Origin: Yuukianura sp. NJ FZ-2021
Taxonomy: Eukaryota
Reading direction: 5' to 3'
DNA: 64,000 nt
Assembly (NCBI GenBank): GCA_046563655.1
Contig: CM102286.1
Span: 14,198,001 to 14,262,000 of the forward strand
The notes beneath the pieces were generated by a model, which had not been told where the DNA came from, ran no database searches, and saw nothing but the letters and a program-made list of their open reading frames with translations. Shown here one piece after another: positions 6,001 to 64,000 of the stretch. The translations under genes were made by a program, and so were the position numbers. Numbering within the stretch: position 1 is the first letter of the stretch; each line of letters begins with the position of its first letter.

Positions 6001-8406
6001 TGAGGGGGAAGCCAAAACTTAATCTAGAAGAATAAGTGTTATGTGTTAGACCAGAAATGTAGCACAGGGAAGATAAAATTTGAAAAAATGGCGCTTCTGA
6101 AAAGCTAAGCGTCAAAAAAGTAGAGCACACCGCCGCCGCTACTCGATTATCCTCTTTTTCTTCTTTGTTTGAGCCAAACAAGACAAAACAAAGACAAAAT
6201 CCAATCTTTTTTTGTTTGTAATTTAAAAAAAGATATTAAAGGCCATTGCTATGTAACAGTGTTGAGATTTTAGAAAAGTGGAACATTTCAAAAAAAAGTT
6301 TGTGCCACTTTTAACTTTTTAATTCAACAAAAAGATAGAGATTACGGAATGCTGTGACAGAACTACTATGTAGGTTAGATTTACCTTAACTTTTCAATTT
6401 AACCTAAATTTAATGTAATCCTTTGAAGTTTTAAGATTTTTTTGTTTTGGTTTTCATTTTGGTTTTGAAAAACAACTCTTGAGGTTTTTCCGGAAAAGGT
6501 TTTCTGTTAAAAAGAAAAGTGTTTGTTGACTTTCTTAATGTCTCGTCTTGTCCTGGTGGGTCGCCAGTTCGATTCCCAGTTAAGGTGAACTTTTTGTGCA
6601 AACAAACCTAACCCTACCACCACCATCCCCTATAATTTGAGCCTTCTTCCAGGTGCAGGCAGTTTTCTTGTTTGCAAGAACTGTCTTACCCCCCCCCCCC
6701 TCTTCTGATGGGGGGGGGAGCTAATCTAAAGTGTCTTAAGACAATATAAAATATACTTTGACCTTTGACCCCTAACATGTCACTTCCTGATTATTATTTA
6801 ATGTGTGACATTGTATGGCGTGGCGGGAGAGGGTAAAATTAGATGATCAAAAATTCTAAAACGAAGCGTGAAACCCTGCAATTATGTTTTGTGTTCAGAT
6901 TATTCCAAAAATCGAAATTCATAAATCCTGCATCATTTTTCAAACCCTAGTTGTGTATTATATGCATCGAAAATGCACCGAGTGTAAACATTTCAAAATT
7001 TGAATTTTTAAAACTTGAAAAAAAGCAAAATCAAACTTTCACTTTTAGAATTTTAAGGAAAAAGTGAGGAAGTTACTTTTTAAAACAAAAACTTTTGTAA
7101 ATTCAAGTTAGTATGCACGATGAGCGGGTTTTTGAAAAAATGAAATTCGTTCCGTTAAGGCATCGTCTCGTGTTTCAACCTTCAACGACTTTGAAAATTC
7201 AAAATTTTTAGAACAGTTGTTTAAGAGTTTGCTCAAGCATTGTACTGGACACGGCGCCTTTTGTTAAACTTATCCTCAGAAGTGGATCTTAAGAAATTTT
7301 AAGCAAAGTCATTGTTCAAAAAAACTTTTTTGAAATGCGGGTGAGGTTTTTGAATTTTTCAACGGACAAAATGTTGCGTAAAAGAAAACGGAAGAAACTT
7401 TTTCATTCAAAACGAGTTTCCGTTGAGGAAGAGGAACTTGAAGATATCTTGAATCTTTCTTTTGTTGTTTCCTCTTGCTCAAGGGAATGCCAAGGCACTA
7501 GTTAGATAAGAAGGCCCTTCATTGAACAACTTTTTTTGAAATTTTGAAATTTTGATCCGTTGGAGGAAGTAACTACTAAGACTTTAACACTCCTCCAAAA
7601 CTTCCTTTTGTTCCGTTGAATCTTACGGAAGAAAATGGAAATCTTCGTCCGTTGGAAATTCCGGAACTCGTTTCGTCTTTTCTTTTCTTGAGCGTGAGAA
7701 TTTCAGGAACAAAAAGTTTAAAGAGGGGCCCTTTAAAATTTACTTTCAACAGGGAGCCCTTAATAGCTTTTTCTTCACGGACTCAAAAGAAAACCGGAAT
7801 TATTACTAAGGTTTTCAATGGAAGAAGAAGAATAAGGAACAAGGGGGTCTTAGAAGATTGTCTTGAGGCAGAAAACTTGGGGAGCCCTTGAAGGAAAAAT
7901 TTTCTTGGGGGGACCCTTCAAAAAGTTTTTGTTTCCTACAGTGCCATTTCAATTTTTTTGTTCCTTGCAGGTAAGAAGCGGAAGGAAGTGAAATCGGGAA
8001 CCGCAGCAAAGCGTGTACTGTATGACTCACGAGGAAGAACCATAAGCCGCCTAGCCTTAAAGCACCGGTCCTTTAAAAAGTACCCTCAAAACGGAAGTAA
8101 GGGCCGGAGGACTTGAAGGGATTCTTCAATGAATGAAAACTTTACCTTTGGCAGCACGCTCACTTCCCTTAGCCTAAGGGCCCTCCGAAGACTTTAAACT
8201 TCAGAGCCATATACTTCCTCTGTCGTGAGCCAAGCGTGTAACCTTACTGTTAAAGGGCCCCCTACACTAACATTTCAAGGGACCCTTAAGGCCTACTTCC
8301 GAAGAGAGCACGAGACACTTTTGGTTAGGTTTTGGGGGAAGCCCTTAGAGACGCTATTTTTTGTTAGTTCCTTGGACGCTTTAATTTCCAAGGCATCTGT
8401 CCCTTG

Positions 8407-11400
8407 ATGACGAGCTACAGTGGGGCTAAGGGCTCCTCCGAAGTGCCCTACTACCATCCAGGGCCCTCAGCGTCTGAAGACAACAACAACAATAACCACG
8501 GACGGAGACATTCGCAGGATTCGCGCCGAAGTAGCAACTGCGCAGGCCCCCCTCTCCTCCCCTTTACAATGGGCCCAACAATGGGCCAAACCTTGGGCCC
8601 AGCATCTGCACCGAACAATGGGCTTAGCAGCAGCCACTCGCCAAGATCCAGCAGCAGTCATCGCTCACCGTCTCAGTCGTCAGTGCCTTTCAGCCCTCCT
8701 TACACGTCTCCCCAGCATCTCTTCCAGTCAATTGCTGCAGTCGCTGCAAGTTCGAATGCTGCCGCTGCAGCCGCTGCTGCTGCTGCTAAGCGTACTCGCC
8801 ACCGTGTAGATGCCGGTGAACCGCGTGGGTGCTTCCAACAAAACTTCTACAGTAGTTACGAAACCAAAATGCTAACAGACTATAATCAGCAACTCTTGCG
8901 AGAAATGCTTGTGTCCAAAATTGGATTTGAAGAAGACGTTAAAGTCAACGGCTGCAAAAAACGAAAGTTGTACCAACCAGTCAAAAACGAAAATCCACCA
9001 ATCGGAACATCCAACAGAGACGGTAAGCCAAAAAAAAAATTGTCATTTTTCAAAGTAATAAGAAAATTTTAAGCAAGAAACAGAAAAAATAAGAAAATTT
9101 TTTGTTCGAATTTTTGCCTTTAGGAAAATTCGAGTTTTCCTGGTTGCATATTTCTAACTTTTTTAAAATTTTATCCGCCGAATTTTTTAAAAATTTTTCC
9201 AAGGAAAGAAAAATAAGTGGGCGCTTTTTTTAAAATTTCGCCAGTTTTAGTTTTTTTTTATTCAGTTTTCCTTTGTGCTTGTTTAAAAACGATAAAAATT
9301 TTTGGAAATTGAAATTTCGAAATTCTCCTCTTTTTTGAGTTTGGGTGGAGTGGAAATTGTCTTAGTGTTTGGGGAGCGAGTCTTAATTAATCGTTAATCG
9401 TCAGGTTAATTAGAAAGATGATGAAATGGATCTGACAGGGAAAGTGCTTGGGCAAGGTTCTCGCCTTTTCCCTTGTAAAATTTAATTCTCTTAATAAGAC
9501 TTTCCAATTACTAAAACTTTAGAAGAAGGGAGAGAGAAAACTTAGGGAGAAAACGGAAAAGTAACTTTTAGACTCCTGCACCTTCAACAGAAAAAAGAGA
9601 AACTGTTTAATTGAAACGAAGGTACATAAGGTGGTGGGCCTTAATTAATTAGGAACCAAACACGGAAGAAAAGTCTTGTCTTTCTCAAAGGAAAAACAAA
9701 TGTCTCTCCTACATGCAATGAGGGCGATAGATTTACAACCTCCATAACCTAACATCCTTAGCTTCTTCTTGTTATCTTCCTACACACTTTCACTTCACTC
9801 ACTTTCACTTTTAGAAAACTCAAAAAAACCGGACACACACACCAACACTACTTCAATAAAAATAGAAACAACGGAGAAACAAGTCAGGAAAAGAGAAAGT
9901 TTGTAAACAAGTCAACAGACTTGCGCTGTCATCTTCAGTAGATCAACATTGGACAAATAAAGAGTCTGAGTGATATACGCATTTAGTTGTTCCAAAAAAA
10001 ACGGACACAGTTAGTGGGAATCGTACCCCCACCCCCGTTTCCTGGGTAGGACGCACTAACCAGACCACTAGAAACTCAAAGACGTAAAATGTCATACATG
10101 GGCGTCGGAATTGCTTAGAAAAGAAGCGGGAACCAACAAGTTGACTTTTTTGCTGTCAATAATCAATAGACTGCTGCGGAATGGGCCTCGAAGGCAGACA
10201 AAGTTTGAGCGTTTGAAGAGGGAGAGGCTGATGAGTGGCTTTGATTTTCAAAGGGTCTAATTTCCCTACCTTTCACCACCGACTTTCTCCACTTTCTTCA
10301 TCCATTTCAAGGGAAAATTTAGTTGTAGACTGAAAATGTTGTAGAATTATTTTACAAGACAAAAGACTCTGCATTTGCCCAATTCTTACACTGTCATTAG
10401 CACAGTCCAATTTAAACATGTAACATGGAATCAAATTTTCTAAGATGAAGTCACATACACACATGCACAAAGCAAGATCGATTGTTCAATTATTTCCTGC
10501 CATTCTGAGGATCTAATTGCAACGACAAGGTGTTAATTATAAGGTTCAAATTTTGGAACCAAATTGGGCGGCAAACTCTCTGTACTTTCAAATTTTGAAA
10601 TTTTGAATCTCGCACTCCCTAATACTTTAAGCTTGAGTCAAAAAAAAGTAAAGTAGCTTTTTTAGTTAAAAAAAATTAAGTTGGTTGCAAATTTTAGTTT
10701 GAAATACCTTAGAAATATGGAATTTTTTTAGAAAGACAGGGATATTTTTTTTTGAAAATCAAAGGTCAAAGGTCACTCAATTTTTTTTGTACTTGTTAGG
10801 TGGGTCACCCGGACCACAACAAGGCATCATGCTTCCAAATCATCGTCGAGAACACACACCACCCCTTACCAACGGCAATTCTTGGGGAAGCCACCCCCTG
10901 CCACCCCACCTCCGAGCCACCCCCCTCCAGCAACAACTTCAGCAACACCCCATGTCCCCACCACCCCCCTCCTTCCCCCACCAAATCCCATTTCAATGGA
11001 AAGAAACCTTCAAGAACAACATCTTAGCCACAATTGGAGACTTAATCGACGCCCAGTTCGCTGCATGGAACCAGCTCAAAGATTCACCCCTCCTCAACCT
11101 CCCCCCACAGCAACCCCCACCCCCTCGCATCCAAGTTCCCACCCCCCAACTCCCCCTGCCACCTCAGCAAGTCCCCCCACCCCCCAGGAACTTCTTCCCC
11201 TCAGTCACAATGCGACAACAACCCCCACCCCTGTCTCCCCCCTACCCACCCCCTACGGACTCCCCCCTCTCGCTGGTCATGACCCCCAACACTAAGAAAA
11301 AGCGTCACAAAGTCACCGATACGCGACTTACGCCCAGGAATGTCCTGAAACTGGATGATGACGAAAAGTATTTTGGGAAGTATGACGTCAGCCCACCAGC

Positions 11401-12598: not shown

Positions 12599-13191
12599 AA
12601 ATTTTCAAAAAATTTTTTTTCGAAAAGAGGTCACGAGGTCATCTTAACTCTTCCAGTCGCAGAGATTTGTAAAAGAGATGCAACACTTTTGTTGTCACTT
12701 TGTTTAGTCCACTAAAAAGTCAATCTGCAAAATCCAGAGTCATTTTTACCAACGGTACAACAAAAGCAAAATTTAACTTAATTTTTAATTAAGTAAAACC
12801 TACTTTCATTTAAAAAAAAAACTCTTGTGAAATTCAAAATTTCGAATTGAAATGATTCCAAAGAGAATTCCAATAATTAAGAGACTAAAATTCAGAATTA
12901 GAGCCAAAGTTCTTCCTGATTTCCATTCCAGTTTTAAACTTCTCCAGTATTAAGTTAGTTTTAGACTAAGGTTAAGGTCAAGGTCATTGACCTTGTTGTT
13001 GGACCTAGCTAAAGGTCAACCTAGAGTTAGCCCTGTTAAGGGATGAAAACATTTCAATGCTAAACTTTATTTAACCTAAATTATACGTTAACTTTAAGTT
13101 ATACGTTGCATTCCAAAAAATTCCACTTTGATTCTAAGTCACAGTCATGAACTAATTTATTTGCACGCACCCTCCTTGAAAGTGTAATATC

Positions 13192-13277: not shown

Positions 13278-16200
13278 CTCTCTAGCTTCCTATTTGATTT
13301 TGTATAATAGCTAGTCATTCCATTTCTAAAGAATGAGTGTGAAGAGTCAAAAGAATAAAATATTTTACAACCTGTTTACATTTTCACTTTTTCAAAAAAA
13401 AATTCTTTGAAAATTTTTCATCAAAATTTTTCAGAATTCAATAAACATGAAGAAAAACAGCCCAAGAAGGAACGTCTGTAAGTGGAAATAGAAACCCGAT
13501 TTGCTGATTTGCACAAGAACGAAAAAGAGGTACGTGGTCAGCGTCGCGGATCGGATTGATGCTTCCGGGGTTCGATTCCAGTTAGGTTCATATAATTTTT
13601 TAGTGACTCTTATTCTTCAGTGACATCCCAAAATGTCTTTTTTCTAGCTGAAATGTAAGGAAAGTTGCGTTTGATTACGGTACTAAGGATTTTATTTTAC
13701 CTTGGCCACTGGACAGAGAGGAGTCTGGACTTTCTCTCGAATAAAAAGTGTTACAAGACGAGTAATTTTTATGTTTTTGGCTACTTTCTCTTTCTCCCCT
13801 CACTTGATGACTTGAATTTATGCTTTTCTAAGGTGAAAGTATCCATTTCTTCCCCTCTGTGCTGTAAAATAAGATCAAATTTCGAGACATTAATTCTGAA
13901 GCGTGTGTGGGTGAGGATGGGAGGAATCAATAGTGAAGGAAGACCTCGTCCACAACTTTCGTTTTTTGCATAAAAGTCCACTCTGCCCGCCGGATCCAAT
14001 CGGAATAAAAATTGGCGGGATTTTTGAGTGCGGTCATTTCCCTGGGTTCTGGTCAGAGATAGACTGAAAGAGTGGGAGGGAGTGGAAGCGGGAGTTGAAA
14101 TTTTTTGAATTTCTTTTGTTTTGCCGCTGCTTCTGCTGGACATTGAAAGTGGTGGGTTCTGGACTTTGTCTTGCTGGAACTAAATTGAATTTGGGTGGTG
14201 GTGGTCCTGTTTCTGGAGAGGATGACGTGAAACGTTGTGGTTTGAGGAAGTGGGGGCGGGGGGCGAGGGGTGGGTGGGGGAAGTTGAGTAAAAGTGCTGG
14301 ATGCTGGATGCTGGATGCTGTTCTGTGCAAAGGGTTGAAAATCCCGGGATTTCTGGCAAGAAAAAGGAGTGGAGCTCCTTCTCCAGCAGGGGCGGAGGGT
14401 TTAAGCTCAAGAAAAAACTGGACAACTCCCCGGGACTCACACTTCTTCCGGACACAAAAATTTCCAGAAGGTGCGCAAAAGATTTTCTCCAAGCTGAGGC
14501 TGGCGAAAACCACCCGCTCCAGTTTTTTTATCCGGAGAGCTGGAGCGCAGGGTCAGTTGAAGACGCCAGAGAAAGCACTTTCACCACTCCTTCGAACACT
14601 TTTTGGAATTTGCACTTTCCTTGGAACTTTCCAGAAAAAAGTGGAGCAGGAACCTGGACGCCCGAAAAACTGGACATGTTTGAGACGGCGTCCAGGAAAG
14701 AAAGAAACTCCGAATCCCGGGCTTTCTCCAGCTCCGGCAACCAAAAATCGGGAAAGGCTGGAGCCACTTTTTCTGGATCTTAAACTCATGCGTTCCACAA
14801 AGCAAAGGCAAAATGCCCTCCTGCAGCGAAGACCACACTACTGTGATGAGATACCGCTTCCTAGGACTTTCTGGATGATAGAGTTACACTTTCACACCAA
14901 ATTGGTCAACAGCAATCTGCTCAAAAACAAAATAATCAACCCAAACACAAACAAAAAACAAACATTAGCCAACAACCAACTTTTCCCAAACACCAAAGTT
15001 TATCAACATTAGACAATTCTTTTTTGTAATTCTCAACATCGTATATTTCATTGTAATATACGATTTTTTTTTATTCTAAAACTTTTTGACTGTTTTGCAT
15101 GTGGACTGTTTTACGTAAAAGTTGTAAACGGAAAGTTGAAATGTGTTGGGGAGAGTTTATTTTTACATTGAAAGTGTTGACCATTTGGCTGTGGCCTGTT
15201 TTGTCTGTTGACCATTTGCCCGTTCAGCGCCTACTGGAATTAGGTGCCAAACCCTCGATATCCAAAATCCGAAATCTAAACTACATCTCGCAGTAGCTAA
15301 CGTGTGGGTGATCAGAACTTTCTCCAGCGCTTTCTCCAGCAGCACCTCCTCATCATCCAGAAACTGTGGAGTGTATGTACACTAATGTCCTCCGTACATG
15401 TTTCAATCCCTGGGAAAATTCGACCCTTGCGGAGCTCCATTTTTCTTAGACTTTGCGGCAGGGCTTACACGCTCTCCTCAGCTCCTTTCTCCACTTTCCC
15501 TCTCACAACCTTGGCATTTCCACACACACAAGTCATACAAAGTTCATGCAATCCCGGCCATTTGAACAAACTTTTTAAAAAATAGTACTTGGAATGAGCT
15601 GTAGTCTTGCTCTCTTGAACTTCCACTTCAAATTATACCTTGCACACTTTCTGGAAAGCTCATCCTAATGATAGAAGCTCTCCAAGTCCAACACCACAAA
15701 AACCACCACCACCATCGTCCAGTTCCCTGGAAAAGCATCTCCAGCACCCTCCGGTCGATGCCCTCTACACGTGGACCAACTTTCACCACACTCCATCCCT
15801 CTTTTAAGCTTCATTTTTCTAATATCAACCCTCACTCTCGGATTTTTTACTAGGTCACAAGCATATCACAGGTCAAAGGTCAAAAGAGAGAAAAAATAGC
15901 TGGAAAACGAAAATCAACAACTTAACCTTCGTCATATTCCTTTTGTCTGGCATAAACTAATCAAAATCTGAACTTTTTGTAATTAGAAAGGCATGTAAAA
16001 AGAAAGCTTGTTTTTTCTACAATGCTTTCTCTATAAGTTAGAAGTAGGAAATTGTGTCATTTGCACGATGGTGATTTTTTGAAAAAATTTGATGTCAAAG
16101 ACCTCTATGGAAAATGCATAGGTTGGAAAATTTTTGTATATTTGTAAATACAGGAAACGTTAAGAATAAAATGAAATGAAATATTTGACGGTTATTATTA

Positions 16201-19200: not shown

Positions 19201-19243
19201 TGTTCTTTTGATTTAAATTTTGAAAAAGTTGGCGGGAAGGAAG

Positions 19244-22190
19244 ATGAGTTTGGGCGGTGGCAACGGAGTGGAATTCCTTAAACCGGGAATTCACTTCCCA
19301 TGGGCAGAATACGTCGTCTTCATCCTTGTCCTACTTGCATCTTTAGGCATCGGAGTGTTCTATGGATTTTTTGGCGGGAAAAATCGCACGAATGAAGAAT
19401 TCCTAATGGCCGGAAGACAAATGTCAATTCTACCAGTGACTTTGTCACTACTATGCAGGTACGGAGGTCATAGGTCAAATTCAAAAACGATAAAACTTTT
19501 GCAAGCCATCTGAAAATATTTTTACAAAAGAATATATTAAATGCCACATCTTAATAGTTTACACGTTGTCGTCCAAATCTTAGCTTTGTTTCGGCTATTA
19601 CTCTACTTGGAAATCCGGTAAAAATTATTTGTTTCAAAATTTCGAAATTGAAAAAGTGTGAGGACGTTCAAAATTATGAAATTTGATGCTGGCAATTCAG
19701 TTGGAGATTTACTTTTATGGAGCTCAGTATACGTTCGTAGCCTTTGCAGTTGTTTTAATGACGCTCATACTCATGTTCATCCTCGTTCCAGTATTTTTCC
19801 GATTGCAACTTACTTCAGCTTATGAAGTAAATGAAAAGGAAAACTAATTTTAATTTTAAAATTTTTAATTTTATTTGAACCTCACACTATTTATATAAAA
19901 TAACATTTTTCTAGTACTTTGAATGGAGATTTAGCAGAAGAGTGCGATTGACACTTTCTATTTTTGCAATTATCCATTTGGTAAAATTTTTTTCCAAATA
20001 ATTTTTTTGTAGATGGGTATGGTGAAATTTCTTTTCACTTGCGTTAAAAAAATGTGATTTTGATTAACTTTTAGTGTTTCTACATGCCAACTACTGTGTA
20101 CGGTCCCAGCTTAGCATTGGATCAAGGTCTGGACTTCCAAATTTCACTTTTTTTAAAGAATTCTGTCGAAGAATTACGTTTTTTGAATATTTTTCGGTTT
20201 AGTTGCCGGTTTGGATACAATTGGAGCGTGTGCTGCCATCTTCTTTGTGTGTATCGCTTATTCGTCACTGGTAAAAAATAATTTTGAATAACAAACTGAT
20301 TATGGTGAAGTGTAAAAATATCCAAAATTTTTAAAAAATTAGGGTGGATTGAAAGCAGTACTTTGGACTGGTGAGACGAAAATACAAATTCATATTTTTA
20401 TTTTGTATTGCATGTTTTTTTTTAATTTTTTTTTATTGAATTATACATATTTTGTCACATTACAATTTCAGATGCACTTCAAGCAGTTGTAATGGTTGTG
20501 GCTTTAGGAGCAATCATTGGAGCGGGAATGTTTGAAATTGGAAGTTTTTCATACGTATGGGACCTCGCCGCAAAAACACAACGAACAGAGTTCCTCATGT
20601 ACCACTTCAAAATTTTCTGAACTTTCGTTAAAATTTCATTCAAAATTTTTGAATTTTCAGATTAGACATTGACATTCGTACAAGACACACATTGTGGACC
20701 GATACGATTGGAGCTCTGTTCATGTGGCTTCCGTTATTTGCTGCGACGCAGGCGCAGATTCAACGTTACAATGCAGTTCCTACTCTACGTCAAGCCAGAA
20801 TGTAAAAAATTGGACTCAAAATCAGGATATTTTCAAACTTTAAAAAAAAATCTAAAATTCTAAAAAATTCCATGTAGTTGCTTGCTCATCAACATGTTTG
20901 GATTGACATCGATCATTTTGTTTTGTTCTTGGATTGGACTCATGCTGTATGCCAAATACCATGACTGTGATCCCATTGAATCACAGGTAAGTCAAGCGAC
21001 AAGAAATTTTGACAAAATTTTGGATGCAAATTTTGAATTTTTTTTTATTTCAGATGATTCGATCTCCGGATCAACTTTTGCCACTGTTTGTCATTGATGT
21101 GCTAAAGAACTATCCAGGAATTCCGGGACTCCTTGTTGCTGGACTAACTTGTGGAAGCTTAAGGTTTGGCCGACGAGCTCAAAATTTTGATAAAATTTTG
21201 GAAAATCAAAATTTTTTTTATTTTGATTTAACTTTCAGTTCTGTTTCAAGTGCTTTGAACTCTCTAGCTGCAATAATCACCGAAGATTTTGTGAAACATC
21301 GCAAACCGAATCTTTCTGAAGAGCGTCTAGCAGTAATTTCCAAAATTATTTCAACCGTTAGCGGCCTCGTTGGATTTGGTTTAGTTTTTGTCATTGCAGA
21401 AGTTAACAAAACTGTTCAAATTTCACCGGTAATTCATGTTCTGTTTAAAATTTTTTAAAATTTTTGAGGTAGTAACTAAAATTAATCTTTTGAACAGTTT
21501 TCCACGCTTGTTCATGGCAGCTTACTCGGACCAATTCTTGCCACATTTTGTCTTGGAATGTTTTTTCCTTGGACGAATGAACTGGTAATAAAAATTTTCA
21601 AAATTTCATTTTGTTAGAAATACAAAAATTTTTTAATTTATTTGTATTTTTAGGGAACATTGTTAGCCCTAATAGCTTCAGTGTCCGTGTCAACCTTTGT
21701 GGGTCTGGGAAACGTAATTGCTGGAAGAGAAGGAAAACTGCCCAATCAGAAACTGAGTTTAAGCGTTGACGGGTGTCTATTGGCCAATGGCAGCACTTTG
21801 TCCAGTCATGCGCAGTCGTTTCTTGAACTAAGGACACTGGGCGACTGGAAGGTTGCGCATGAGCAAGATCCATTTCTGCTCAAACTCTGGTCAATTTCAT
21901 ACTTGTGGCAACCAACCCTTGGATTCCTGTCGACATTCTTCCTTGGACTAATTTTCAGTGCAATGATTGCGGCTGTGCAGAGACGAAAAGCACCAAAAGT
22001 CAACGCAAGTCTTCTCAGCATTCCATTTTTGAACTTGTGGCGAAAACTGTTTGGACAAACTCACGTACTAGAATGGGTAGATTTTGAATCACCGCCATTT
22101 TCTGGAAATCCCTCCACAAAAAAGTTCAGAAACAACAACGAAGTTATTCTAAAAGACATTGTGAAGCAAGGAGGTTTCATCAAATCATAA
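19244..22190 (+). CDS. Sodium:solute symporter (SLC5A8/SLC5A12-like sodium-coupled monocarboxylate transporter), copy 1, multi-exon
   Basis: SSS family motifs [93 protein letters not shown] across GT-AG exons. Confidence 0.92.
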
Positions 22191-22753
22191 TTTAGTCCAA
22201 AATTCTAAAGAAAAAAAAATTAAGAAAAGTTGTTTTTGAAACCCCTAACGCAGAATACTCATTAAAATCTTGGTTTTCAGCTTTTGTAAAGATACACTCC
22301 ATGTGACCTGTGTGACCTTTGACCTCTAGCACTTGCAATAATTTTGATATGATGCTAAATCCAACAACATTAAACTTGCAATCGTACTAAGTGAAGTTCA
22401 TTATCTTAGCTGCGTTTGCGGATTTATATTTTTCTTCATCTTTGTGCAAATTTTGTGTTTTCGATTTGAAAAAAGCTGCAATTGTACTTGCTGACTATGT
22501 GAAAAAATGAATAAAAAAAATATGTTTTTCTGCTTTAAACTGAAACTGAAAGATGAACTTTTTAGATCAAACTTTTCCATAAATACATCTAAATTAAACT
22601 ACACAGAAAGTCAGAAACAGTCAAGAAAACTTTTGTGCAATTCTGTATTCTGCATTTCAAAGTAAGAAACTCACATTTTACAAAATTTCAATTTTTTTAA
22701 ATAGATTTTGAAATGTGTTTCATTCTTTCTGTTTTTTTTCCCTGAACTTCCAG

Positions 22754-24008: not shown

Positions 24009-27000
24009 ATGGAAACTACACCTAAACCAGAGTTTGTGACGCCCGAAGTAACGTTTGCTTGGACGGAATACATTTTCTTTGGCCTCACTTTAGCAGCATC
24101 TTTAGGAATTGGAATTTTTTATGGATTTTTCGGCGGGAAAAATAGAACGAATGAAGAATTCCTTATGGCCGGAAGATCAATGGGCATGTTACCAGTCACA
24201 CTGTCATTGCTCTGCAGGTACAAATTCAAAAATCAAAATTTTGAAAAAATGAAAGTGGAGCTTAAAAACAAAATTCTAAAATTTTATATGACGTTCTTTC
24301 TATAGTTTTGTGTCAGCAATTACACTGCTGGGGAATCCCGTGAGTTTCTAATATCTATGAATTTCTATTTTCAAAATTTGCTTCGAAAAGGTTAATTAAT
24401 GAAGAGGTCAATTCTGATTTTTTTTTTGAAATTTTGAAAGGTTGAAATTTACTTGTACGGAGTTCACTACACAATGAGCATCATTGGAATGATTCCGATG
24501 ACACTCATTCTCATGTACCTCTTTGTTCCGGTTTACTTTAACCTCCAGTTGACCTCTGCATATGAGGTAATAATACGAGACATATTCGTGATTTACTTAA
24601 ATTATTTAATGAAATTCGCGAATTACCTAACATATTAATTAAATAACTTACTGATTATGAAAATACACCTGGGAAATACCTAATTTTAATTTGCAAGTTC
24701 CAAATTTTAAATTTTTTTTTTGTAGTATTTCGAGTGGCGTTTCAGTCGAAAACTGCGCTTAACCGTCTCCGTAATGGCCATTTTCCACTTGGTAAGTTTA
24801 ATAAAGACTTTTCGAATTTCGAAAAGTATTTTTTGATGAAATATTTTTTTCTCTTTTTTCAGATGTTTTACATGCCAACAACTGTCTATGGACCTAGTTT
24901 AGCTTTAGATCAAGGTGAAAATAAAATTTTTCAAAGTTATTTTTTCAGAATTTGTCGTAAAATTTTTGTTTTTTTCTTTATTTTGAAAATTTACAGTTGC
25001 TGGGATCAATACTTTCTTGTCCTGCGGAGCAATTTTCATTGTTTGCATTGCATATTCATCAATGGTGAGTTGGTCATTTGTCAAATGCAGTTTTGCAGTT
25101 TTAAATTGTTAGTAACCATTGTTACTAAACAAATTAAAAACACTTAATTAATTACTCATTCATTAAAACTTAGGGTGGACTCAAAGCAGTGCTGTGGACA
25201 GGTGAGATCTTGGAAAAACAAAGTTCAATTGTAGTCGCCAGTTCGAATCCCGGCTCAGTCAATTCTAAACAAAAGTTATTCAACTGTCTATATTTGTCGA
25301 AACGTTGTTAGATGCTTTGCAAGCAGTGGTCATGGTTGGGTCACTGGTTGCCGTCATAGTGGCAGGAACAATAGAAGTCGGTGGCTTGTCGTTCATGTGG
25401 CAACAATCAGAAATCACACATCGTACGGACTTTTATGTGTAAAAAAAAATTTCACTTTTTGAAATTACTCTGAATATAAGTTTAACAAATAAGAAAATTT
25501 ACATTAGCTTCAATTTTTTTTTTGTATTTCAGAGACGACCCTGATCCAAGGTCACGTCACACGATTTGGGCTGATGTGATTGGTGGAATGTTCGTGTGGT
25601 TGCCATTGTTTGGAGCAACACAGGCGCAGATCCAAAGATACAACTCAGTGCCAAAACTTAGTACAGCTAGGAAGTAATGCTTAAAAACAAATTCAAAATT
25701 TGGTGGGAAAAAAGCTTTTTCAAAATTTTGACTTTTTTCAGAACACTGCTTTTTAATATGTTTGGCCTCATGACAGTCGTCACCCTCTGTTCCTGGGTTG
25801 GTCTCATTATGTACGCTCAGTACTATGACTGTGATCCAATTAGTGCCGAAGTATGTCAAAAACTTTCAAATTTTAGTTTCACTTTTGTGAATTACTTTTC
25901 AAAATTTTGAAAATGTTTTGAATAGTTTGTCGACTCCACTGATCAAATGGTGCCGTTGTTCGTCATTCAAGTTCTGGCCAAGTATCCAGGAATTCCAGGA
26001 CTTTTAGTCGCTGGTCTAACATGCGGAAGTCTTAGGCAAGTGATAATTTTTTCAAAAATCAAAATTTTGAATTTTCATATTTTAATTTCATTTTTCAAAA
26101 TTTTGAACTTCAGCTCCATTTCCAGCGCTTTAAATTCATTAGCAGCTCTCATTACAGAAGATTTTGTAAAACCGCGTCGACCCGGAATGTCCGAAGAGCG
26201 TTTAGCTATGGCTTCAAAATTAATTTCTCTCGTCACAGGAATCATTGCTTTTGTCCTCGTTTTTATCATCGCAGAGGTCAACAAAACTGTGCCAATTCAA
26301 CCCGTAAGGTCAACTGATTATACAGTACAGTGAGAGTAACTGTACTGTATTATCGCAAATTTTTTGCACATTTTTGCGCATTTTTGCTTATTTTTTTGCA
26401 AATAGCTGTCAACTCTCATTCACGGAACTCTGCTTGGACCAATTCTGGGAGCATTCACACTTGGAATTTTTTTTCCATGGACAGAGCAACTGGTGAACGA
26501 AAAACTCAAAAAAAAAAAAAAAAACATGACCTTTGACCTTGACCTCTGAAAATATTTATTCTCAAAAACGAAAATGTTAAAAATTTTTTTCAATTTGGAA
26601 AATTTTCAGGGCGTTTTCATGGGCATCGTGACGTCAATTCTGATTTCGGGATTTGTCGGGGTGGGTGGAATTTTCGCAGGTCGTGAAGGGCTGCTACCTG
26701 ATCAGCGTCTGACGCTGCGAACTGACGGATGCGAATTTGCGACGGATCCTGTCCGGAGGATACTGGGCCTCGACCAGGCTGAATTTGAAATCATTGGGCG
26801 CGAAGACTGGAAGATTGAAGCTGCTGATGACTCTGTTTTGATCAAAATTTGGTCAGTTTCGTACATGTGGGGTCCCATCACGGCAGTTTTTACGACCATA
26901 ATTGTTGGTCTGATTGTCAGTGGAATAGTGGTGACCTTCAGAAAAGAAAAGAGGCCAAAGGTCAACCACAGTTTACTTGGCAAACCACTGATGAAACTAT

Positions 27001-33250: not shown

Positions 33251-33474
33251 CGATAGGATTTGGACGGATCACGCGCATGCGCAGATTATCCATAATGTAC
33301 ATGATTCGCCGCTATTAATTATACCATTCTGAAAAACTTTTTACTCAAATTTTGATTGTTAAAGAATAAATTTCATCATATCAGAGATTTTCTGGATGTT
33401 TAGTCAATTAGTTTTGACTTGTAATCGTCACCAACAAATTCTTGAGTGACCTTTGACTTGTCATTGACATCAAC

Positions 33475-43420: not shown

Positions 43421-46356
43421 TCATTTCTTCTTTTTTGGTTTTGAGTCACTGGTTTTTTGTACAAATTTACTGGCAATTCCAAAAAGACTTCGAGAATTCC
43501 CGCCACCGAGGATCGATCCCGTGCTCTTTGACTTTGTAACAGAACCAACTGCCACTAAGCTGGTTTCGGCTAAAGAAGGATCCAGTTGAGCAGGATTAGT
43601 TTGACCTTTGACCTCGTTCTCATCATTTCTCACCGGAAGTTGTAATTCATTCCTAGGAACTCTAATACCCGGAACTCTGCTAATACCCGGATTCTGAAAT
43701 GAGTTGGACCTCGTAAGACTCAAGAGACTCACTCCACTATTGCTCTCGTCACGCAACGGTCCACTACTAAAACTATATTTTTTTCTGGAACAACCTGGAG
43801 AAGCGTTTACCGGGATTCGTGACGGTCTTGGCGGAGGAATTGGAATAGCATTGGCTTCTAAAAATTTGTCCAAACTAAATTCCTGTTCTTGCGGTCGAAA
43901 TTTTTCTGTTTCAAAATAGTTACTCCCGCCGCCATTTCCTGCTGAATTCAAACCGTTTTCATTTTGCTGAGAATCCAGAAACCTCCGACGAGCCATGAGC
44001 GGTGAACACCAAACCGGTATTTTACCGAGAATCGGTTTACTTCCGTCTTTAATTTTTGGTAGTTTTTCTAAAGCTGGGATTGGTGGCAGGCGAAAGGTAG
44101 AAGGCGGCGGAGCTCCGGTTGCCGAATTTTTCCGAACGGCTCCGATTATGCGCGGTGGCGGTTCGGAAATTTTTTGAGACGATGGTTTCCCGGGATCGTT
44201 AATGCCGACTTCTGAAAAACCGTGAAAACCGGGCGTTTGAAACGAATCTTGAAACCTTGAGCCCGACGAATCAGCGATTTCTGGTGAGCGTGAAAGTTGA
44301 GCACACAGGGTTTTCACAAGTTTCGGAGAGTTTAGATTACTAGATGCTGAAAACGACAAAATGGCGTCTTCTGCGTCTTCAACCGGTTTGAAAATCGTTC
44401 GTTGTGTTTTGACAATAACGCCGGCGACGTTGTCGCCAATGTCGTCATCTTCAACAACGATCGGTTTTGCTTTGACGACGACCGGTAACGGTTTCTCTTC
44501 GGTCCGCTCCTCTTCATTTTCAGCGACAGTTTGAAGCATAAAATTCTCTTCGTCGTCCGAAGTACAGCAAGAAGGAGAGGGAGATCGAGCAGACGAAAGT
44601 GGAGTCGAAATGGCATCGGATGACCTACGACGAAAACCGGGTTTTAGGTTGAAACAATCCGAATCGGTGTTTGAAGCTCCACTGGCCGGTTCGTCTTTCG
44701 TGGCAAACGAATCCGTTGCATCGTATTCGTCGTAGTACTCGACCTCACTCACTTCTTCTGACTGTGAACTGTAATCTTTGCTCATGCGCTCTTGAATTTC
44801 TTCAATCGGTTCAGGATCTTGAACAGGAAGCGCCTGGAATTAAAAAAAAAATATTTAAAAAAAAATTTTCCGCCAAATTTAAAAATTTGAACATATTTTT
44901 GTACCCATGGTGGCAGTAATGCTTCACAAGCCTAAGATTACCTTAAATCCTGGCTTGTAACACGCAATTACAAAAAAAAAATCTGACAAAATGATTTAGT
45001 TTTCTCGCCAATAAAAAATTCCACCTTTTTTTTTACCGGTTCGGTTTCTGGTGTCGGATTTTGTTCCGGTTCGGGCGAAGTCGAGAAATATTTTGGATTG
45101 AGAAGTGCCATTGTGGAACATTCCGGTTGAATTCCGCGCTTTTCTTCCCACTTGTACAACTTTTTCGTAAATTTTTCATTGAGGCCTTCAACTTTACATT
45201 CCGCCGTCGGCGTTTTAATCCAAACTTCTTGTTTTGGATTTGGATTATTTCGAATTGCTTCCCGCATTTTTTGAAGTCTCTCTTCCCGCTCACAGTATTT
45301 CGTCATTTCCCGCTCCAATCGTTTTTTCTCAACTTCAATTTTTTCTAACTGCTTCTCCAACCATGCCAATTCCTTTTGACGATGAGATTCATCATTTTTC
45401 TTCTTTTTTCTTCGTTGCTCATTTTTGGTCGGAGCAGTACTACTGGCACTGCTGCTCAAAACTTCTGAGCCGCACCCTCCAGGGTGCGCTGGATCCGGAA
45501 TTTGGCGGGGTTTACTTTTAATGTGTTCCCACTCTTGTAACTTTTTTGAAAAATCGAGCGGGATTAATTTTTGAAGTTCTTCTTCTGTGTAATGAAATTT
45601 CCCGGTACTTGCTTTCCACATTTCCCATTGCTGGAGGCGTTTTTTGAATTCGGCTGAAAGGGCTTCCTCTTTTCGTTTTTCGCCTTTCATGACTTGGTGT
45701 AGTTCATCTGAAAGCCGTTTTTGCAATTCGACGTAATTGCGAACGACTTGGTCCACTTCAGGGTCAAACGGCTCGGGACACTGGTAGTACTGGTGGTCGT
45801 CACGTGGTGGTCGCCGATCAGCCGAATTCGGCTCATTTCGGCTCCGATCAGCATCATTTCGGCTCCGATCAGGATCATTTCGGCTCCGATCAGCTTCATT
45901 CTTTCTTTCAAAATTTTCTTGTTTTTGATTCGGCTTCCGATCACAGCCGATCGGCTCCACCTGATTTGTGATTGGCTCAAAGTCAAAAACGAGCCGTTTA
46001 CTTGGTGTTGACGGTGGAGTTGAAGAGTGACTGGATTTAAAAACTTTTGAGAACGACGGCGACATTAGGTTGGGCGAATCTGCCAAAATGTCGCCCGACG
46101 GCGACTGTTTCGTACGACTGTTTCTTCTTCCTGAGGGGTGGATTATCGTCATGACCTTGTCCCAAGTTTTTTGTAAAATTTTGACTTTTTTGGAACCTTG
46201 ACGCTTAAGGCCCCCAGACGCCCCTCCACCTTCGGTTGACCTTGACGGCTCTTGTCCCGCCAAAATTTGAATATTTGGCATAGACTTTCCACTGATTTTG
46301 GTCTGAATCAACCGGTTACTCACGGCACAATTTCCTAACGAATTGGATCGCCTCAT
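43421..46356 (-). CDS. Uncharacterised ~910-aa largely disordered/coiled-coil protein; exons 46356-45037, 44833-43421
   Basis: Two long ORFs joined in phase 0 (CCG|gtaaaa...ttccag|GCG); three FxK[KR]LxxWE motifs and a charged coiled-coil segment. The start codon is uncertain. Confidence 0.8.
45830..45897 (-). repeat. Coding 21-bp tandem repeat (~3 copies, [AP]DRSRN[DE])
   Basis: tcatttcggctccgatcag[cg]a repeated three times. Confidence 0.85.
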
Positions 46357-48889: not shown

Positions 48890-50766
48890 TCACTTCCTGC
48901 GGAGAAAGCTAAAAATGTCTCTGAAAGCATCTCGGAATGGTTTGATGCTGGAAGCATAGATGATTGGATTCAAACAGGAGTTGAAGTAGCGAATCCAGCC
49001 AAGCGCAATAAAAAGTTGTCCCGGCACGAGGGTTTTATCGATTGCCATAACCATGAAAGTTGTAAAAAATGGAAAGTAGCAAACGAAAAAGGCGCCAACA
49101 ACCATGAATAATTTTTTGGCCAAACTTGTTTGTTTCTTTCTGCTTGCCGTCAGAGCATCGTCCTCCTTGGAATGACCTTTGACCTTCTTTGTATCCACCA
49201 TCTCGCAACTGTCAGTGCTGTTCAAGTCAGCTCCACTGTAGCCAGAATTGCTGTGGCCAGAATCGCTGTGGCCAGCATTGCTGTTTGTTATCTGGGTGCT
49301 CACTTTTGAATTTTTGGCGGCACGCGAATCCACTCCAGAGTCTGCAGAGCTTGATGTAAGTCCGTGTGTTTTTTGGCGTCGTTCGGTAATTCCGCGAAGA
49401 TGAGCTCTGGCAACTTTGTAGATCATGAAGTAGAAACTGAGCATGATGGCACAAGGAATGTAGAACATGAAAACCATGACAGTTACGACATGCCCAACTT
49501 GGAAGTTGACTGGACAGTCGTAGGGTTTAGTAAACGGCTCTTCCCAGATGAACAGTGGACCGACGCTGAGGATTCCAGCGATCAACCACACCACGGCACA
49601 GGTAGGTAGCACAACACGCTCCGAATTCAAAACCTACAAGAAAAAAAAAATTAAGAAGAATTTTAGTACTAAAGAAATCTTATATCTACTTGTCCGTCTG
49701 ATTTTGGTTTGTAAGGTGACGTTTTCGGCTTTATATGTGTGAAATTGGCATTCTGAAGTAATAATGTTGAAATTGAAAAACTTGATGTTCTTCTTAAAAT
49801 TTAAGAACAGCCAAAGAAAAATTTGGGGCGACATCCCGACGTCCATTTCAAGAATTCTTGTCTAACCTAAAAGAAATTCTAAAGCCAAACCTAAAAGAAA
49901 TTAGACAAAAATTTCTTGTCTAACATACCTAATTGAAAAGCTACTGTTGAGATTGAAAAAAATTGATGTTGTAAAAAAAATCACAATAATTAAAGAAAAA
50001 TTTGGGGAGACGTCCCAGCGAGCATGCAAAGAATTCTGGTCTTAAAAAAAACGCACTAAAATTAAATATTTCTGTTTCACATTGCCCCAAATCACCAAAA
50101 AATCGGATTGGCTGGCATAATCGATCAGAATCATCAACAAGTTCAAAATCGACCTGAATGTTCGCTGACCTTGAAATTCAAAATTGACCTGAGAGGTCAC
50201 TGACCTTGAAATTCAAAATTGACCTGAGAGGTCACTGACCTTGAAATTGAAAATTGACCTGAGAGGTCACTGACCTTGAAATGTGTGAGGGGGAACTTGA
50301 CCCCGATGAACCGTTCCACACAAATGGCCGTGATGGAGAGTATTGATGCTGAGCAGAGCCAGTAGTGGATGCAGTGGAATGCTCTGCAGTAGCCCTCCCC
50401 AAAGTACCACTTCCCGCTCACACTCAAAACAGCCAGGAACGGCATCACGAGCAGCCCCACCAGGAAATCAGCCAATGAGAGACTGGCGATGAAGTAGTGC
50501 GTGGAACTCTTGAGTGTGTTTCTGCGCATGACCATAGCCAATAGCACAAGTCCATTTCCACCAATAGTGCATAGAGTAATTGCAGTAAAGATCATGGACT
50601 TGATCACACTGCCAGTATCCCACTGGAAGTCAGTTGACGCTGCAGCGGCAGCGTCTGGCGTCACTGTGACAGTGTCAACACCGTGCTGCGCTGCTGTGCT
50701 GGCGTTGAACACCGTGATTGGTCCAGTATTGAAAAAGTTGTCATCAACTTCTTTGCAAATGTACAT
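48890..50766 (-). CDS. Aminergic-like (alpha-1 adrenergic/octopamine-receptor-like) class A GPCR, ~411 aa; exons 50766-50275, 49633-48890
   Basis: GGNGLV, THYFIASLSLADFLVGLLVMPF, WYFG..YC, CSASILSITAICVERF, FYIP, FFVCYFPFF, YFNSCLNPIIY...FRDAF. Confidence 0.9.
49765..50045. repeat. Diverged ~100-bp direct repeat pair (period ~180 bp) in the GPCR intron
   Basis: tgttga.attgaaaaa..tgatgtt...aaagaaaaatttgggg.gac.tccc...aagaattct.gtct at ~49765 and ~49945. Confidence 0.7.
50165..50282. repeat. 35-bp tandem repeat x3.4 spanning the GPCR splice donor
   Basis: Unit ctgaccttgaaattcaaaattgacctgagaggtca at 50165, 50200 and 50235, partial at 50270. Confidence 0.95.
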
Positions 50767-52777: not shown

Positions 52778-52897
52778 ATGCCAAGAGCACCCGGGGTTCC
52801 CAGGCGGTCACCCATCCAAGTACTAACCGGGCCCGACGTTGCTTAACTTCAGTGATCGGACGAGAACTGGTGCTTTCAACGTGGTATGGACCTTGGC
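52778..52897 (-). rRNA. 5S ribosomal RNA, single dispersed copy
   Basis: GCCAAGGTCCATACCACGTTGAAAGCACCAGTTCTCGTCCGATCACTGAAGTTAAGC...TTAGTACTTGGATGGGTGACCGCCTGGGAACCCCGGGTGCTCTTGGCAT, followed by an oligo-T Pol III terminator. Confidence 0.97.
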
Positions 52898-54923
52898 GAA
52901 AGTTCATGCATTTTAATTCACCCTTGTTATAAATCTGTACTAAAAAGTCCAAATAAAATGCAAATTGACCTTTGACCTTTCGTGCTTTTACGATTGCCAA
53001 AAAGTACAAAGGCAGTAAAAAATTCCCACGCGAATAACTTTTTTCCCGCTCATTTGCAGTCACAAGGCCTAACATTTTCTTTGTAACCCGTCCAATTTTA
53101 TTGACCTTGACCTTGACAAGGTGCTAAAAGCTCTAACAAAAACTTTGCAAAACTCGGACTCCGTTTCCCATTTCGAGTTCCACAATTTAGTAACAAAAGG
53201 AAACCAAGAATTTGTACATTGGGTACATATTCAAACAGGGTGCCAAAACCAACATACCGACTACAGTTTTCGGATCTTGTTTCAAATAAATTAGTCTAAA
53301 GAGCTTAAGGTCTTAATGTGACCAAGGCACGAGATGTGCCAGGAATTCGTTAATTCTCTACACATCTAGAACATTACAAAGGTTAAACATTATTTAATCC
53401 GTTTTGCTCCAGAAGTAGTTCAAGTGGGTGTGGCACTTTCACTTTAGACATTTCAGTACAGGATGAATGATTAGCCCAGTCCACACACACCATCGTCCAC
53501 AAGTTCCAGAGTGTCAAAATGTTAAACATGAATCTTAAAAGTACAAGTTCGGGCGTTTCCTTTTCAAAACTCTGAACATACTGTAAAAGTTTAATTCTCG
53601 AAAACGTTCGTGAAATGGTACTTTCGGTTTTGTGTTTTCTTTAGATTTCGGTGATAAATTGTAGGTAAGTAAAGAGCTTTCAAAGGTTGGAACTCGTTAG
53701 TTGCTGAAATTTAGTCTAAAAATCTGAAAAGCCCGAATTCCTGACCCCCCATTGCTGCCGCCGCGTGTCCCTGGAAAACTTTTTACCCGGGGAATTTTTA
53801 TGGCATAAGCAATCTGGCATCGCTCTGGCACAGACCTCGCTAAACCTCGTTCCCACCAATAATCTGCGAGACACAAGGTAGGCTAATGTTGTTTGATTAA
53901 TTAACGAATTAATTGACCCCTAAAAAGGTTGTAGTTTTAGTTAAAAACGTTTAAGAAAAGGAAGAAAACGTTTTTTGGTTAAAGTGAAAGCGGGAAACTT
54001 TCTCTTTGGGTGAAAATTTGAAACGGGGAGCGGGAATTTTCTTAAGTGGATTGAGAGTTTTTCACTTTTTTTTCACACCTTCGCTGTAAAAAGCTTTTCT
54101 GGATAGTGTTTTGTTAGGACTAGGAGTACATTGTGTAGTATGTAGTTAGTTGAAGAATTAGCATAAGTTAACTTTAATTGATAATTAAACTTCCTCGTTC
54201 CTCCTTCCCCGTTCCCCTTTCATTTTTACGACTTATTATCTAGATAGAAGATATAAGTTTCAAGTAACCATATGGTTATAAGCAGTAGTTTTATGATGGA
54301 ATTGTGGTTATGGTTTAGCTAGTCATCATGACACTTCTTTCACCATTGTTTTGCGTAGTACGACTCCGTCAAGGTTGAGCAACTCACGATCCGATTACAT
54401 TCAGGGATCACGGAACCTGGAGGCACTGCACGACACGGCCAGCGAAGACCGGTTTGGACGATTGACCAGGTTGAGGTAAAGGTCATCTTCATTTTAATTA
54501 AGTTGTTAAGTATTAAGTTCCTAAAAGTACTATAATTAGGATCGTGCGTATGCCACATGAGTGGGTGTAATTCAATGGTAATTAGGACAAGGGGGTTTAC
54601 CATGTCATATTATTGAAATGAGGTCTGTGTTAAATTCCTAATTTGATGATTGTTTCTTTTTTTTATGTTCTTGCTGGTGGAACGTTCGGCTGACAGACTG
54701 CCATTCACGTTCGTTGGATTTGGAAGACTTCCAGAGGTCCGTCCTGCTTGATGTATCGGTATTCGTGGGGATTACTTGCAGTTTAGGAGTTGGAGGATTG
54801 TTTAATAAGACCGTCCTTTATTCACGGGTGAAATACGTAAACGGATCTGGCCATACTTGATCTCATCTCTTGTCTACTCTTTGGAGTCTGTACTGATTCC
54901 GACCACAGAAAAACGTTAGGATA

Positions 54924-60956: not shown

Positions 60957-61227
60957 GTGCCAAATCAATTCATTTGCAAATTTTTAGTCTAAAAACCACG
61001 CCTCTGAGTTGTGATTGGACAAGGCGGAAGGTGTAAACGAAACGTTGGAAAATCAAGTGCACTTGAATTCAAGTTTATCACATTGTTCCATTTTCTGTGA
61101 TGGCGTGATATGTGACGAGTTTGAAGTGTTATTCAAAAGTGTTTCTAATTCGAGTTCGATTTTGTCATTTACACGTGTTAACATTTTTGCACTCAACACT
61201 TCATTTTTCAAAAATGAAATCATTTGA

Positions 61228-61577
61228 TTTATTAAGTAGAGATGCTTTGCTACTTTATGATTTAACCTTGTCTGTCTGTCTCTCTGTCCGTCCGTCCGTC
61301 TGTCAGCTACGCATTATCTGAAAATCTTCTTAAAAAAAAAACTTTCAAAATTTCATGTGAACGCCGGGTGACCCGGGGGGTGTTCACGATTGAATATCAT
61401 CCCCCATGGGTCAAATCCTTCCAGGTCAAAGGTCAACTATTTTCTATCAACGTATACAACTATATACACGATTGTTCATCATAGTAGTATTCTGTTGTTA
61501 GGAGTTGTTTGTTAATATAACGTCATCTCTTCCTTCGCTACTTTCGTACATTCCAGTTTACGACTGGATTTATTGGT
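61228..61577 (+). mobile_element. DINE-1/HINE-like non-autonomous Helentron element
   Basis: 5' aagtag with inverted gctacttt at ~61249 and again at ~61537, (GTCY)n microsatellite 61270-61303, 3' hairpin tccagt-ttacg-actgga, T-rich flanks. Confidence 0.7.
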
Positions 61578-63077: not shown

Positions 63078-64000
63078 AAAACTCCAAAGTCAGGATTCGT
63101 TTAACAAGGATCAAGTAGAAGTTCGGGACTTTCGGATTTAGTTGTAATCTCCACTTTGAATACAATTTCAAAAGAATCCGATTTCAATTGTATTCTAAAT
63201 GTACAATTTATCTTGTTTTTTGCTTCAATCGGATCTTGAAAATGGAATAATTTCAAAGTGTTTAATTTTTTTTTAAACTTTATTAATGCATATGTTCTAT
63301 TCTTTGAATTCTATAAATATACTTTGCATGTTAATTTTAAGTACTCGAGGTCAAGTCTGTCTAAATAAATTTTTATATCATTGACCTTAAAACATCATTT
63401 GCACAGTTAGTTCATCTGCACTTTTCCTAATCAGGCTCCAGTCATACTCAACTTTTACACATGCAGTACTTAAAATCCATGCAATTCAACCAATGTGCTT
63501 AACAATTGTGCAGTTTCACAAATGTGCTTAAAAGCAGTGCAATTTTCTAACTTTCAAAAATAACCGCTGCACTGCAACTGCCTGCATACATTGATGCTAA
63601 ACTTTTTTTTTGATGATTGAAATTGCAATTGTCAAAAACTGAAAATTTCAATTTTTTTTCTTTTGAATTCTGCGAGTCCTCTTCCTCCGTGTTCTTTTTT
63701 CTCAAGAAAAGTAGTTTTTAATTACTCTCCCACCATGAACGCCCACTTTAAATCAAGTTGTAATTTAATTGCAAATTGTGTTACTCCCATTGTTAGATTG
63801 TTCTTGTCCAACACAGTTTTTCACCATTGTTTCAATTAATTAAGAAGATTTAGCTGAGACAGTAGCAAAATCAAAGTGTCTCTCTGATTCACATCTAAAT
63901 GACTTCCACTACCTTCCATTGTTTTTATTCCAAAAAAAAATGTGTAGGTCAAAGGTCACGTGACCTCTGAATTCACCACTTTTGAGCAAAACCGTTGCTG

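Follow-up and report, generated by a model that had tools for sequence, protein, structure and literature searches.

The direct-repeat element DR1, in which two AGGTCA half-sites stand in the same orientation with one base pair between them (AGGTCA-n-AGGTCA), is bound by dimers of HNF4, RXR/USP, COUP-TF/Seven-up and TR2-TR4/HR78. Nuclear-receptor sites normally tolerate degeneracy, and weaker variants usually outnumber the perfect consensus. Here we analyse a 64-kb stretch of DNA from the springtail Yuukianura sp. NJ FZ-2021 (contig CM102286.1, positions 14,198,001-14,262,000; hereafter the window, to which all counts refer) that carries 12 exact copies of the 13-mer AGGTCAAAGGTCA, the perfect DR1 AGGTCA-A-AGGTCA. 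We propose, with a probability of about 45%, that these copies are selected candidate binding sites for a DR1-preferring nuclear-receptor dimer, present at exceptional density.

Short words that occur far more widely than single enhancers are known from other systems. The pairing-centre and rex/MEX words of Caenorhabditis elegans are each read by a dedicated protein, and TAGteam heptamers are read by Zelda, a global pioneer factor. The inverted arrangement of two half-sites around a 1-bp spacer (IR1; AGGTCAATGACCT) is the palindromic element 'PAL1' of the ecdysone receptor (EcR) and USP. The closest parallels, in which a receptor motif reaches very high copy number, are sites borne by repeats: HNF4-alpha sites reportedly lie within Alu repeats (PMC3252374), and an Nr5a2 motif in the short interspersed element (SINE) B1, for which a global (pioneer) role has been proposed, is reportedly used in mouse zygotic genome activation (bioRxiv 10.1101/2022.05.17.492379). 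The literature that we searched, with subscription journals and supplements outside the search, contained neither a report of dispersed DR1 elements in springtails or other arthropods nor a description of a global DR1 landmark system for any arthropod.

Exact copies of the DR1 word far exceed expectation

All 12 copies lie where a preliminary description of this stretch had placed them, five on the plus strand and seven on the minus strand, and each consists of two direct AGGTCA half-sites with a 1-bp spacer, as that description had recognized. The gaps between neighbouring copies run from 963 to 12,277 nt, with a mean of 4.8 kb. Single-base frequencies lead to an expectation of 0.002 exact copies. 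Not one of 100 shuffles that preserved dinucleotides contained the word, and Markov simulations of order 1, 3 and 5 (n = 30 per order) gave 0.0, 0.03 and 0.07 copies. Hexamer frequencies, named beforehand as an explanation that would dissolve the excess, fail to explain the 12 copies, because the order-5 model preserves these frequencies and still yields only 0.07.

The mismatch spectrum is dominated by perfect copies. We found 12 exact, six one-mismatch and five two-mismatch copies, compared with 0.6 one-mismatch and 5.5 two-mismatch copies in the order-5 background; exact copies therefore outnumber one-off copies by 12 to 6, and two-off copies are at background level. Such dominance of the perfect form is unusual for transcription-factor sites. 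The five near-copies listed in the preliminary description (6759, 19465, 29225, 30970 and 33447) all proved to be true one-mismatch copies, and we add a sixth, at 26952, whose first half is AGGCCA. Two of the six carry the half-site GGGTCA and one carries AAGTCA, both of which we take to be half-sites that receptors tolerate. Had all copies arisen in one neutral burst, six one-off against 12 exact copies would mean, by our estimate, that they have diverged by only about 4% since then.

Exact words are retained across an ancient gene duplication

Evidence that the word is under selection comes from two EamA/SLC35-like paralogs. In paralog 1 an exact copy (28816..28828, minus strand) forms the pyrimidine tract that abuts a splice acceptor (TGACCTTTGACCTTAG, read up to the acceptor), and at the equivalent acceptor of paralog 2 the word has been kept at 13/13 positions (31325..31337, minus strand; TGACCTTTGACCTCAG). 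The 13-mer abuts the same acceptor in both genes (TGACCTTTGACCTYAG), in agreement with the preliminary description. The next intron, which is the last of each gene, holds an exact IR1 AGGTCAATGACCT in both paralogs (29195..29207 in paralog 1 and 31724..31736 in paralog 2), again kept at 13/13 positions. The proteins are 65% identical, third codon positions are 42% identical, and 12 of 38 fourfold sites are identical, which amounts to saturation. In the rest of the upstream intron we counted 45 identical columns, compared with 41.6 +/- 2.0 after shuffling. The neutral probability of retaining 13/13 letters is approximately 4e-7.

Because exact words persist despite saturated silent sites and scrambled introns, we conclude that selection, not recent copying, keeps at least these paralog sites. 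As far as the sequence can tell, this conservation shows a constraint on the exact word at the DNA level for the acceptor copies. The retention of both the 13-mer and IR1 between the saturated paralogs supports the finding; the alternative suggestion of the preliminary description, an actively generated motif, is contradicted for at least the two acceptor copies, which are older than the duplication.

Other sites in this gene pair differ between the paralogs. A coding exon of paralog 1 contains an exact copy (27853..27865, plus strand) read as SLKVKGQG; paralog 2 has SLKIKGKG at this place, and its DNA is not the motif. A one-mismatch copy in an intron of paralog 2 (30970..30982, minus strand; GGGTCAAAGGTCA) has no counterpart in paralog 1. 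Another, in the last intron of paralog 1 (29225..29237, minus strand; AGGTCGAAGGTCA), is matched in paralog 2 by a direct repeat with a 2-bp spacer (DR2, at 31754). At the last acceptor, paralog 1 (29240-29262) has AAC where paralog 2 (31770-31790) has CAG, with no AG nearby, so that paralog 1 may have lost its last splice site through decay or may read through to an early stop.

The constraint might alternatively act on RNA, with UGACCUUUGACCU or AGGUCA signalling to the splicing machinery or pairing with a partner on the other side of an exon. Both conserved copies do form the pyrimidine tract at an acceptor, and complementary AGGUCA words lie in the next intron of both paralogs. These downstream partners, however, allow only 6-bp helices, and elsewhere the motif is found in both orientations within transcripts and at places outside recognisable genes, in one case upstream of a 5S rRNA gene. 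Since it occurs in both orientations and outside genes, RNA is not a general explanation, and we hold it to be the least probable of all the explanations weighed here.

Half-sites recur in other receptor layouts

The half-site AGGTCA occurs 98 times in the window, compared with 27.1 +/- 5.1 expected, and is the most over-represented hexamer, low-complexity ones aside. Direct repeats with a spacing of 1 number 13 pairs, 12 of which have A as the spacer, whereas the other spacings are rare (three pairs for DR0, two for DR2, one for DR3 and none for DR4 or DR5; over spacings 0-7, each spacing other than 1 gives 0-3 pairs). We also found seven copies of the palindromic IR1 AGGTCAnTGACCT, with 0 expected, and 14 of TCAAGGTCA, with 0.73 expected; both counts are inflated by one 35-bp tandem repeat, which contains 3/7 of the former and 4/14 of the latter. 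A full or one-off AGGTCA half-site precedes 16 of the 20 CAAAGGTCA words, and the unit is therefore dimeric. Six of the 12 exact copies of the 13-mer have extra half-sites nearby. The word CAAAGTCCA, which we take to be the core of the HNF4-specific motif, occurs four times (0.46 expected). Because 0/4 of these words carry an upstream half-site, HNF4 is not specifically indicated, and we set the HNF4-specific variant aside as the identity of the motif.

The 35-bp tandem repeat is a minisatellite at 50142..50282 (4.0 copies, 94% matches), in the intron just after an exon of a G-protein-coupled receptor (GPCR). It consists almost wholly of AGGTCA/TGACCT half-sites: each 35-nt unit has three, which make up an IR1, an everted pair whose members face away from each other across 3 nt, and TCAAGGTCA. 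A second cluster, AGGTCAAGGTCATTGACCT at 12975..12993, combines DR0 with IR1 and is accompanied by further AGGTCA words at 12628, 12636 and 13013; an assembly gap, seen as a run of 100 N at 12350-12449, lies near this cluster (12628-13018).

We take DR1, IR1 and TCAAGGTCA to be the classical sites of NR2-type dimers, of EcR/USP and of FTZ-F1/ERR-type monomers, respectively. Their joint occurrence makes a nuclear-receptor reading likelier than a single unrelated architectural protein. Such a protein, perhaps a multi-zinc-finger or lineage-specific factor outside the nuclear receptors, would read the whole 13-mer as one genome- or chromosome-wide mark, with candidate roles in chromatin architecture, insulation, dosage compensation, meiotic pairing or chromosome identity. 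A reader of the long word would account for the sharp spectrum of 12 exact against six one-off copies, for the uniform scatter without strand bias that is blind to gene structure, exons included, for a density of about one copy per 5 kb whatever the function of the gene, and for exact retention across the saturated duplication. Yet AGGTCA, IR1 and DR0/TCAAGGTCA are enriched without containing the 13-mer, and IR1 is kept between the paralogs, so the hexamer looks like the recognition unit. By our own reading, 7/12 exact copies also lie inside genes, not at gene borders, and nothing positive in the window favours the architectural mark of the preliminary description. Insulator and architectural sites of the CTCF, Su(Hw) and BEAF-32 type typically favour intergenic, promoter and domain-border positions. 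We consider a long-word reader somewhat unlikely and prefer a receptor dimer.

Copies are scattered and have no detectable carrier

The positions of the exact copies fit a uniform scatter (Kolmogorov-Smirnov p = 0.76), and the strand ratio of 5:7 shows no bias (p = 0.77). Spacing and strand, which had been put forward as checks, thus reveal neither a regular interval nor a preferred orientation, and the motif is blind to gene function and structure within the window, as was first suggested. Three exact copies are exonic, four are intronic (one of them in a putative intron) and five lie elsewhere; together they fall in or beside at least eight unrelated genes, among them transporters, a GPCR, 5S rRNA and proteins of no known family.

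The observed density might be a property of this neighbourhood only. Ordinary nuclear-receptor response elements could be dense locally, for example in a hormone-responsive region, and a view of only 64 kb would suit this explanation, as would the uneven count of half-sites per 4 kb (1 to 18, highest at 24-32 kb and 48-52 kb) and the absence of exact copies from 1-10.7 kb and 31.3-43.6 kb. Against it stand the presence of copies in both halves of the window, their uniform scatter and the involvement of at least eight unrelated genes. We judge a purely local density unlikely.

Of the exact copies, 10/12 extend to a 14-nt word of period 7, for which about 53% would be expected (p = 0.03). The copies could be viewed as unselected products of mutation: AGGTCAA might have undergone slippage or been duplicated in tandem in 7-bp steps, or a transposon might have left excision footprints or target-site duplications. 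The 13-mer does correspond to a 7-mer repeated twice, with part of a third unit present at 10760 and at 26540, and the minisatellite is made of half-sites. The window, however, contains no array of three full units, and for this reason we rejected a microsatellite (AGGTCAA)n. A 7-bp duplication would also break the frame in the three exonic copies, all of which lie in open frames. In addition, a neutral burst cannot give exact retention in paralogs with saturated silent sites, and the enrichment of IR1 would be left unexplained. We regard an origin by mutation alone as quite improbable.

Flanking sequences are unrelated right up to the motif, as reported before, and no second word is shared within the +/-100 nt flanks of the exact copies. 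In a self-BLAST of the window, 0/12 exact copies fell in intra-window repeats, the EamA paralog pair aside, so the excess is not carried by such repeats. The same comparison gave nothing to back the DINE-like element that the preliminary description had offered as a possible dispersal vector. The 13-mer might still descend from an old transposable element, such as a miniature inverted-repeat transposable element (MITE) or a SINE, that was once dispersed and of which only this core has been conserved while the flanks decayed; the HNF4 sites in Alu and the Nr5a2 sites in SINE B1 are mammalian precedents, and the first inspection of this stretch had raised a suspicion of this kind with the DINE-like element. 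The absence of intra-window repeats and of a common flank word, flanks that are unrelated up to the motif and the in-frame position of three copies in coding exons make this even more improbable than an origin by mutation. Within the window the copies do not behave as repeat-borne sites of the Alu, SINE B1 or MITE type, given that 0/12 copies are in repeats, the gene paralogs aside, and that the flanks have no word in common.

Individual copies and their surroundings

The three exonic copies always lie in the same coding frame, xAG GTC AAA GGT CAx, and read VKG[QH], as first described. Besides the copy at 27853 (SLKVKGQG), these are the copy at 43602..43614 (minus strand; NEVKGQT), in a 472-aa open exon of a protein without a Pfam family, and the copy at 49173..49185 (minus strand; KKVKGHS), in a rhodopsin-type GPCR, where it falls within the third intracellular loop. 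A search among longer proteins with the 472-aa exon returned no match, and neither did a search of the same type with the GPCR exon. An exhaustive search with the latter gave a best relative at 51% identity. Because the six closest relatives found do not conserve the motif-bearing loop, the copy at 49173 sits in protein sequence that tolerates change. A metagenome scan recovered three contigs, together 11.3 kb long, with a distant GPCR relative (29-37% identity); they contain no 13-mer, no CAAAGGTCA and nine AGGTCA words compared with 4.4 expected, and are too small and too distant to act as a control.

The copy at 52966..52978 (minus strand) is non-coding; a 5S rRNA gene follows 69 nt downstream. 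We discarded a VKGQ reading of this copy, which depends on a spurious open reading frame (ORF) overlapping that gene. The 5S rRNA gene (52779-52897, minus strand) is full-length (Rfam 108 bits) and is followed by a T-run terminator. It stands solitary amid protein-coding genes and is preceded by a TATA-like TTTATAA and a DR0 (AGGTCAAGGTCA), at distances of about 35 and 205 nt, respectively.

Two sodium:solute-symporter-like paralogs are also associated with copies of the word. An exact copy at 22313..22325 (minus strand) lies 123 nt beyond the end of the last ORF of paralog 1, outside recognisable coding sequence, and has a third half-site at DR3 spacing (22304). In paralog 2, an exact copy at 26527..26539 (minus strand) lies 34 nt into a 117-nt intron and is joined at DR0 spacing by a third half-site (26540); no copy stands in the corresponding intron of paralog 1. 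The first coding exon of paralog 1 has, close to its end, a one-mismatch copy with a T spacer (19465..19477, plus strand; AGGTCATAGGTCA), and the last exon of paralog 2 contains another (26952..26964, plus strand; AGGCCAAAGGTCA).

Of the remaining exact copies, that at 10763..10775 (plus strand) is in a putative intron about 27 nt upstream of a candidate acceptor that belongs to the Pro/Gln-rich ORF 10703-11533, and has an extra partial unit in front, at 10760 (ATCAAAGGTCAAAGGTCA). The copies at 15870..15882 and 61423..61435 (both plus strand) have no recognisable gene nearby; the former has another AGGTCA at 15852 and the latter a GGGTCA 17 nt upstream. The last copy, at 63946..63958 (plus strand), is outside recognisable coding sequence and is followed by an inverted half-site (AGGTCAcgTGACCT, at 63961). 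Further one-mismatch copies lie at 6759..6771 (minus strand; GGGTCAAAGGTCA) and 33447..33459 (minus strand; AAGTCAAAGGTCA).

The window is eukaryotic and gene-dense. Recognisable genes are the two symporter-like paralogs, the two EamA/SLC35-like paralogs, ELP3 and two rhodopsin-type GPCRs, together with a Quiver/Ly-6 protein, a cytochrome-b5 desaturase, the full-length 5S rRNA gene and long open exons that belong to no family. The ELP3 exon reaches its best identity, 94%, in Allacma fusca and Folsomia candida, both springtails, ahead of fish and bugs at 92-93%, a margin that on this evidence makes a springtail origin likely; a symporter exon groups with arthropod clusters. There is no nuclear-receptor gene among the genes of the 64-kb window.

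Several further features were observed along the stretch. The 8-12 kb bin has the highest GC content (0.43). Long open frames without a family match run on both strands between 14000 and 15000 and may be compositional or belong to a decayed element. Two tandem arrays of a 16/31-bp unit beginning AAAAGTGAAAAGGCC, at 42097-42237 and 42700-42924, lie in opposite orientation about 470 bp apart and form a foldback-like structure. A second dispersed word, the AT-only palindrome TCAAAATTTTGA, occurs at 11 sites (for example 857, 12273, 24233, 25899, 26059, 26095, 46361 and 47399), and longer forms, reaching TTCAAAATTTTGAAAA, are found seven times; it has unrelated flanks, lies mostly in introns and possibly reflects low-complexity intron composition.

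Discussion

The excess of the 13-mer, its exactness, its independence from intra-window repeats, the co-enrichment of other half-site layouts and its exact retention across an ancient duplication are the observations from which we infer the identity of the reader, the effect of its binding and the density across the genome. The reader would most likely be a homodimer of an NR2-class receptor, whose two DNA-binding domains would each sit on a half-site, held in a fixed geometry by the 1-bp spacing. A receptor of the USP/RXR, Seven-up/COUP-TF or HR78/TR2-4 type would fit better than HNF4. That perfect sites recur every 5 kb or so among genes with nothing in common, and in introns, exons and intergenic DNA alike, suggests a broadly acting regulator, which might be a global repressor, an activator or a pioneer-like factor, as opposed to gene-specific enhancers.

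Several points weigh against a receptor dimer. The spectrum is much sharper than we would expect of ordinary nuclear-receptor sites: the degeneracy of DR1 response elements does not appear in the window, where exact copies outnumber one-off copies by 12 to 6. Positions that are random with respect to genes (Kolmogorov-Smirnov p = 0.76), with 3/12 copies in coding exons, are odd for enhancers. The evidence comes from one 64-kb window, and the proof of selection from one paralog pair. At the conserved EamA sites the constraint could be exerted on RNA, because these sites are transcribed and one of them is at a splice acceptor. Turnover of sites is also real, since the positions at 27853 and 30970 in the EamA pair and at 26527 in the symporter pair are each present in one paralog only.

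A wider claim would be that selection keeps perfect DR1 words at about one per 5 kb across the whole genome or a chromosome of the springtail, where they would serve as global landmarks. Their reader would be a DR1-binding receptor or another factor that has since come to use the same site. We regard this wider claim as doubtful; the landmark could possibly be a signal in pioneering or genome activation or in chromatin-domain organization, or mark chromosome identity. If the density did extend genome-wide, tens of thousands of letter-perfect receptor-type sites would be kept exact, coding sequence included. This would provide a tractable case for how a short DNA word is imposed on a whole genome, and would test whether nuclear receptors act as global, pioneer-like or architectural readers outside mammals. 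For annotation, the exonic and splice-site copies would represent DNA-level constraint that overlaps the protein and splicing codes.

Comparison with known systems

Among described elements, the DR1 response element is the closest in sequence. The word in the window matches the textbook consensus letter for letter, down to the A spacer; its near-copies carry GGGTCA and AAGTCA, and other receptor layouts are enriched alongside it. It differs in having about one perfect consensus per 5 kb, in that perfect copies outnumber one-off copies and in being blind to gene structure, coding exons included. The IR1 of EcR/USP is likewise represented, by four exact words outside the tandem repeat, two of which are conserved in paralogous introns; it accompanies the finding, however, and is not the 13-mer.

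The Alu and SINE B1 sites resemble the present case in that a nuclear-receptor motif occurs at very high copy number across a genome. Unlike those sites, the copies in the window have no detectable carrier repeat and lie in frame within exons.

The pairing-centre (ZIM/HIM-8) and X-enriched rex/MEX motifs of C. elegans are also exact words of about 12 letters, present at high density and indifferent to local genes, but they occur on one chromosome or in one region only and do not consist of paired receptor half-sites. The TAGteam heptamers of early Drosophila enhancers share a short word and a kilobase-scale density with our case, but TAGteam is a degenerate 7-mer that is not far above chance and has a zinc-finger reader. 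The word itself is thus a textbook DR1; what would be new is its density, its exactness and its blindness to gene structure.

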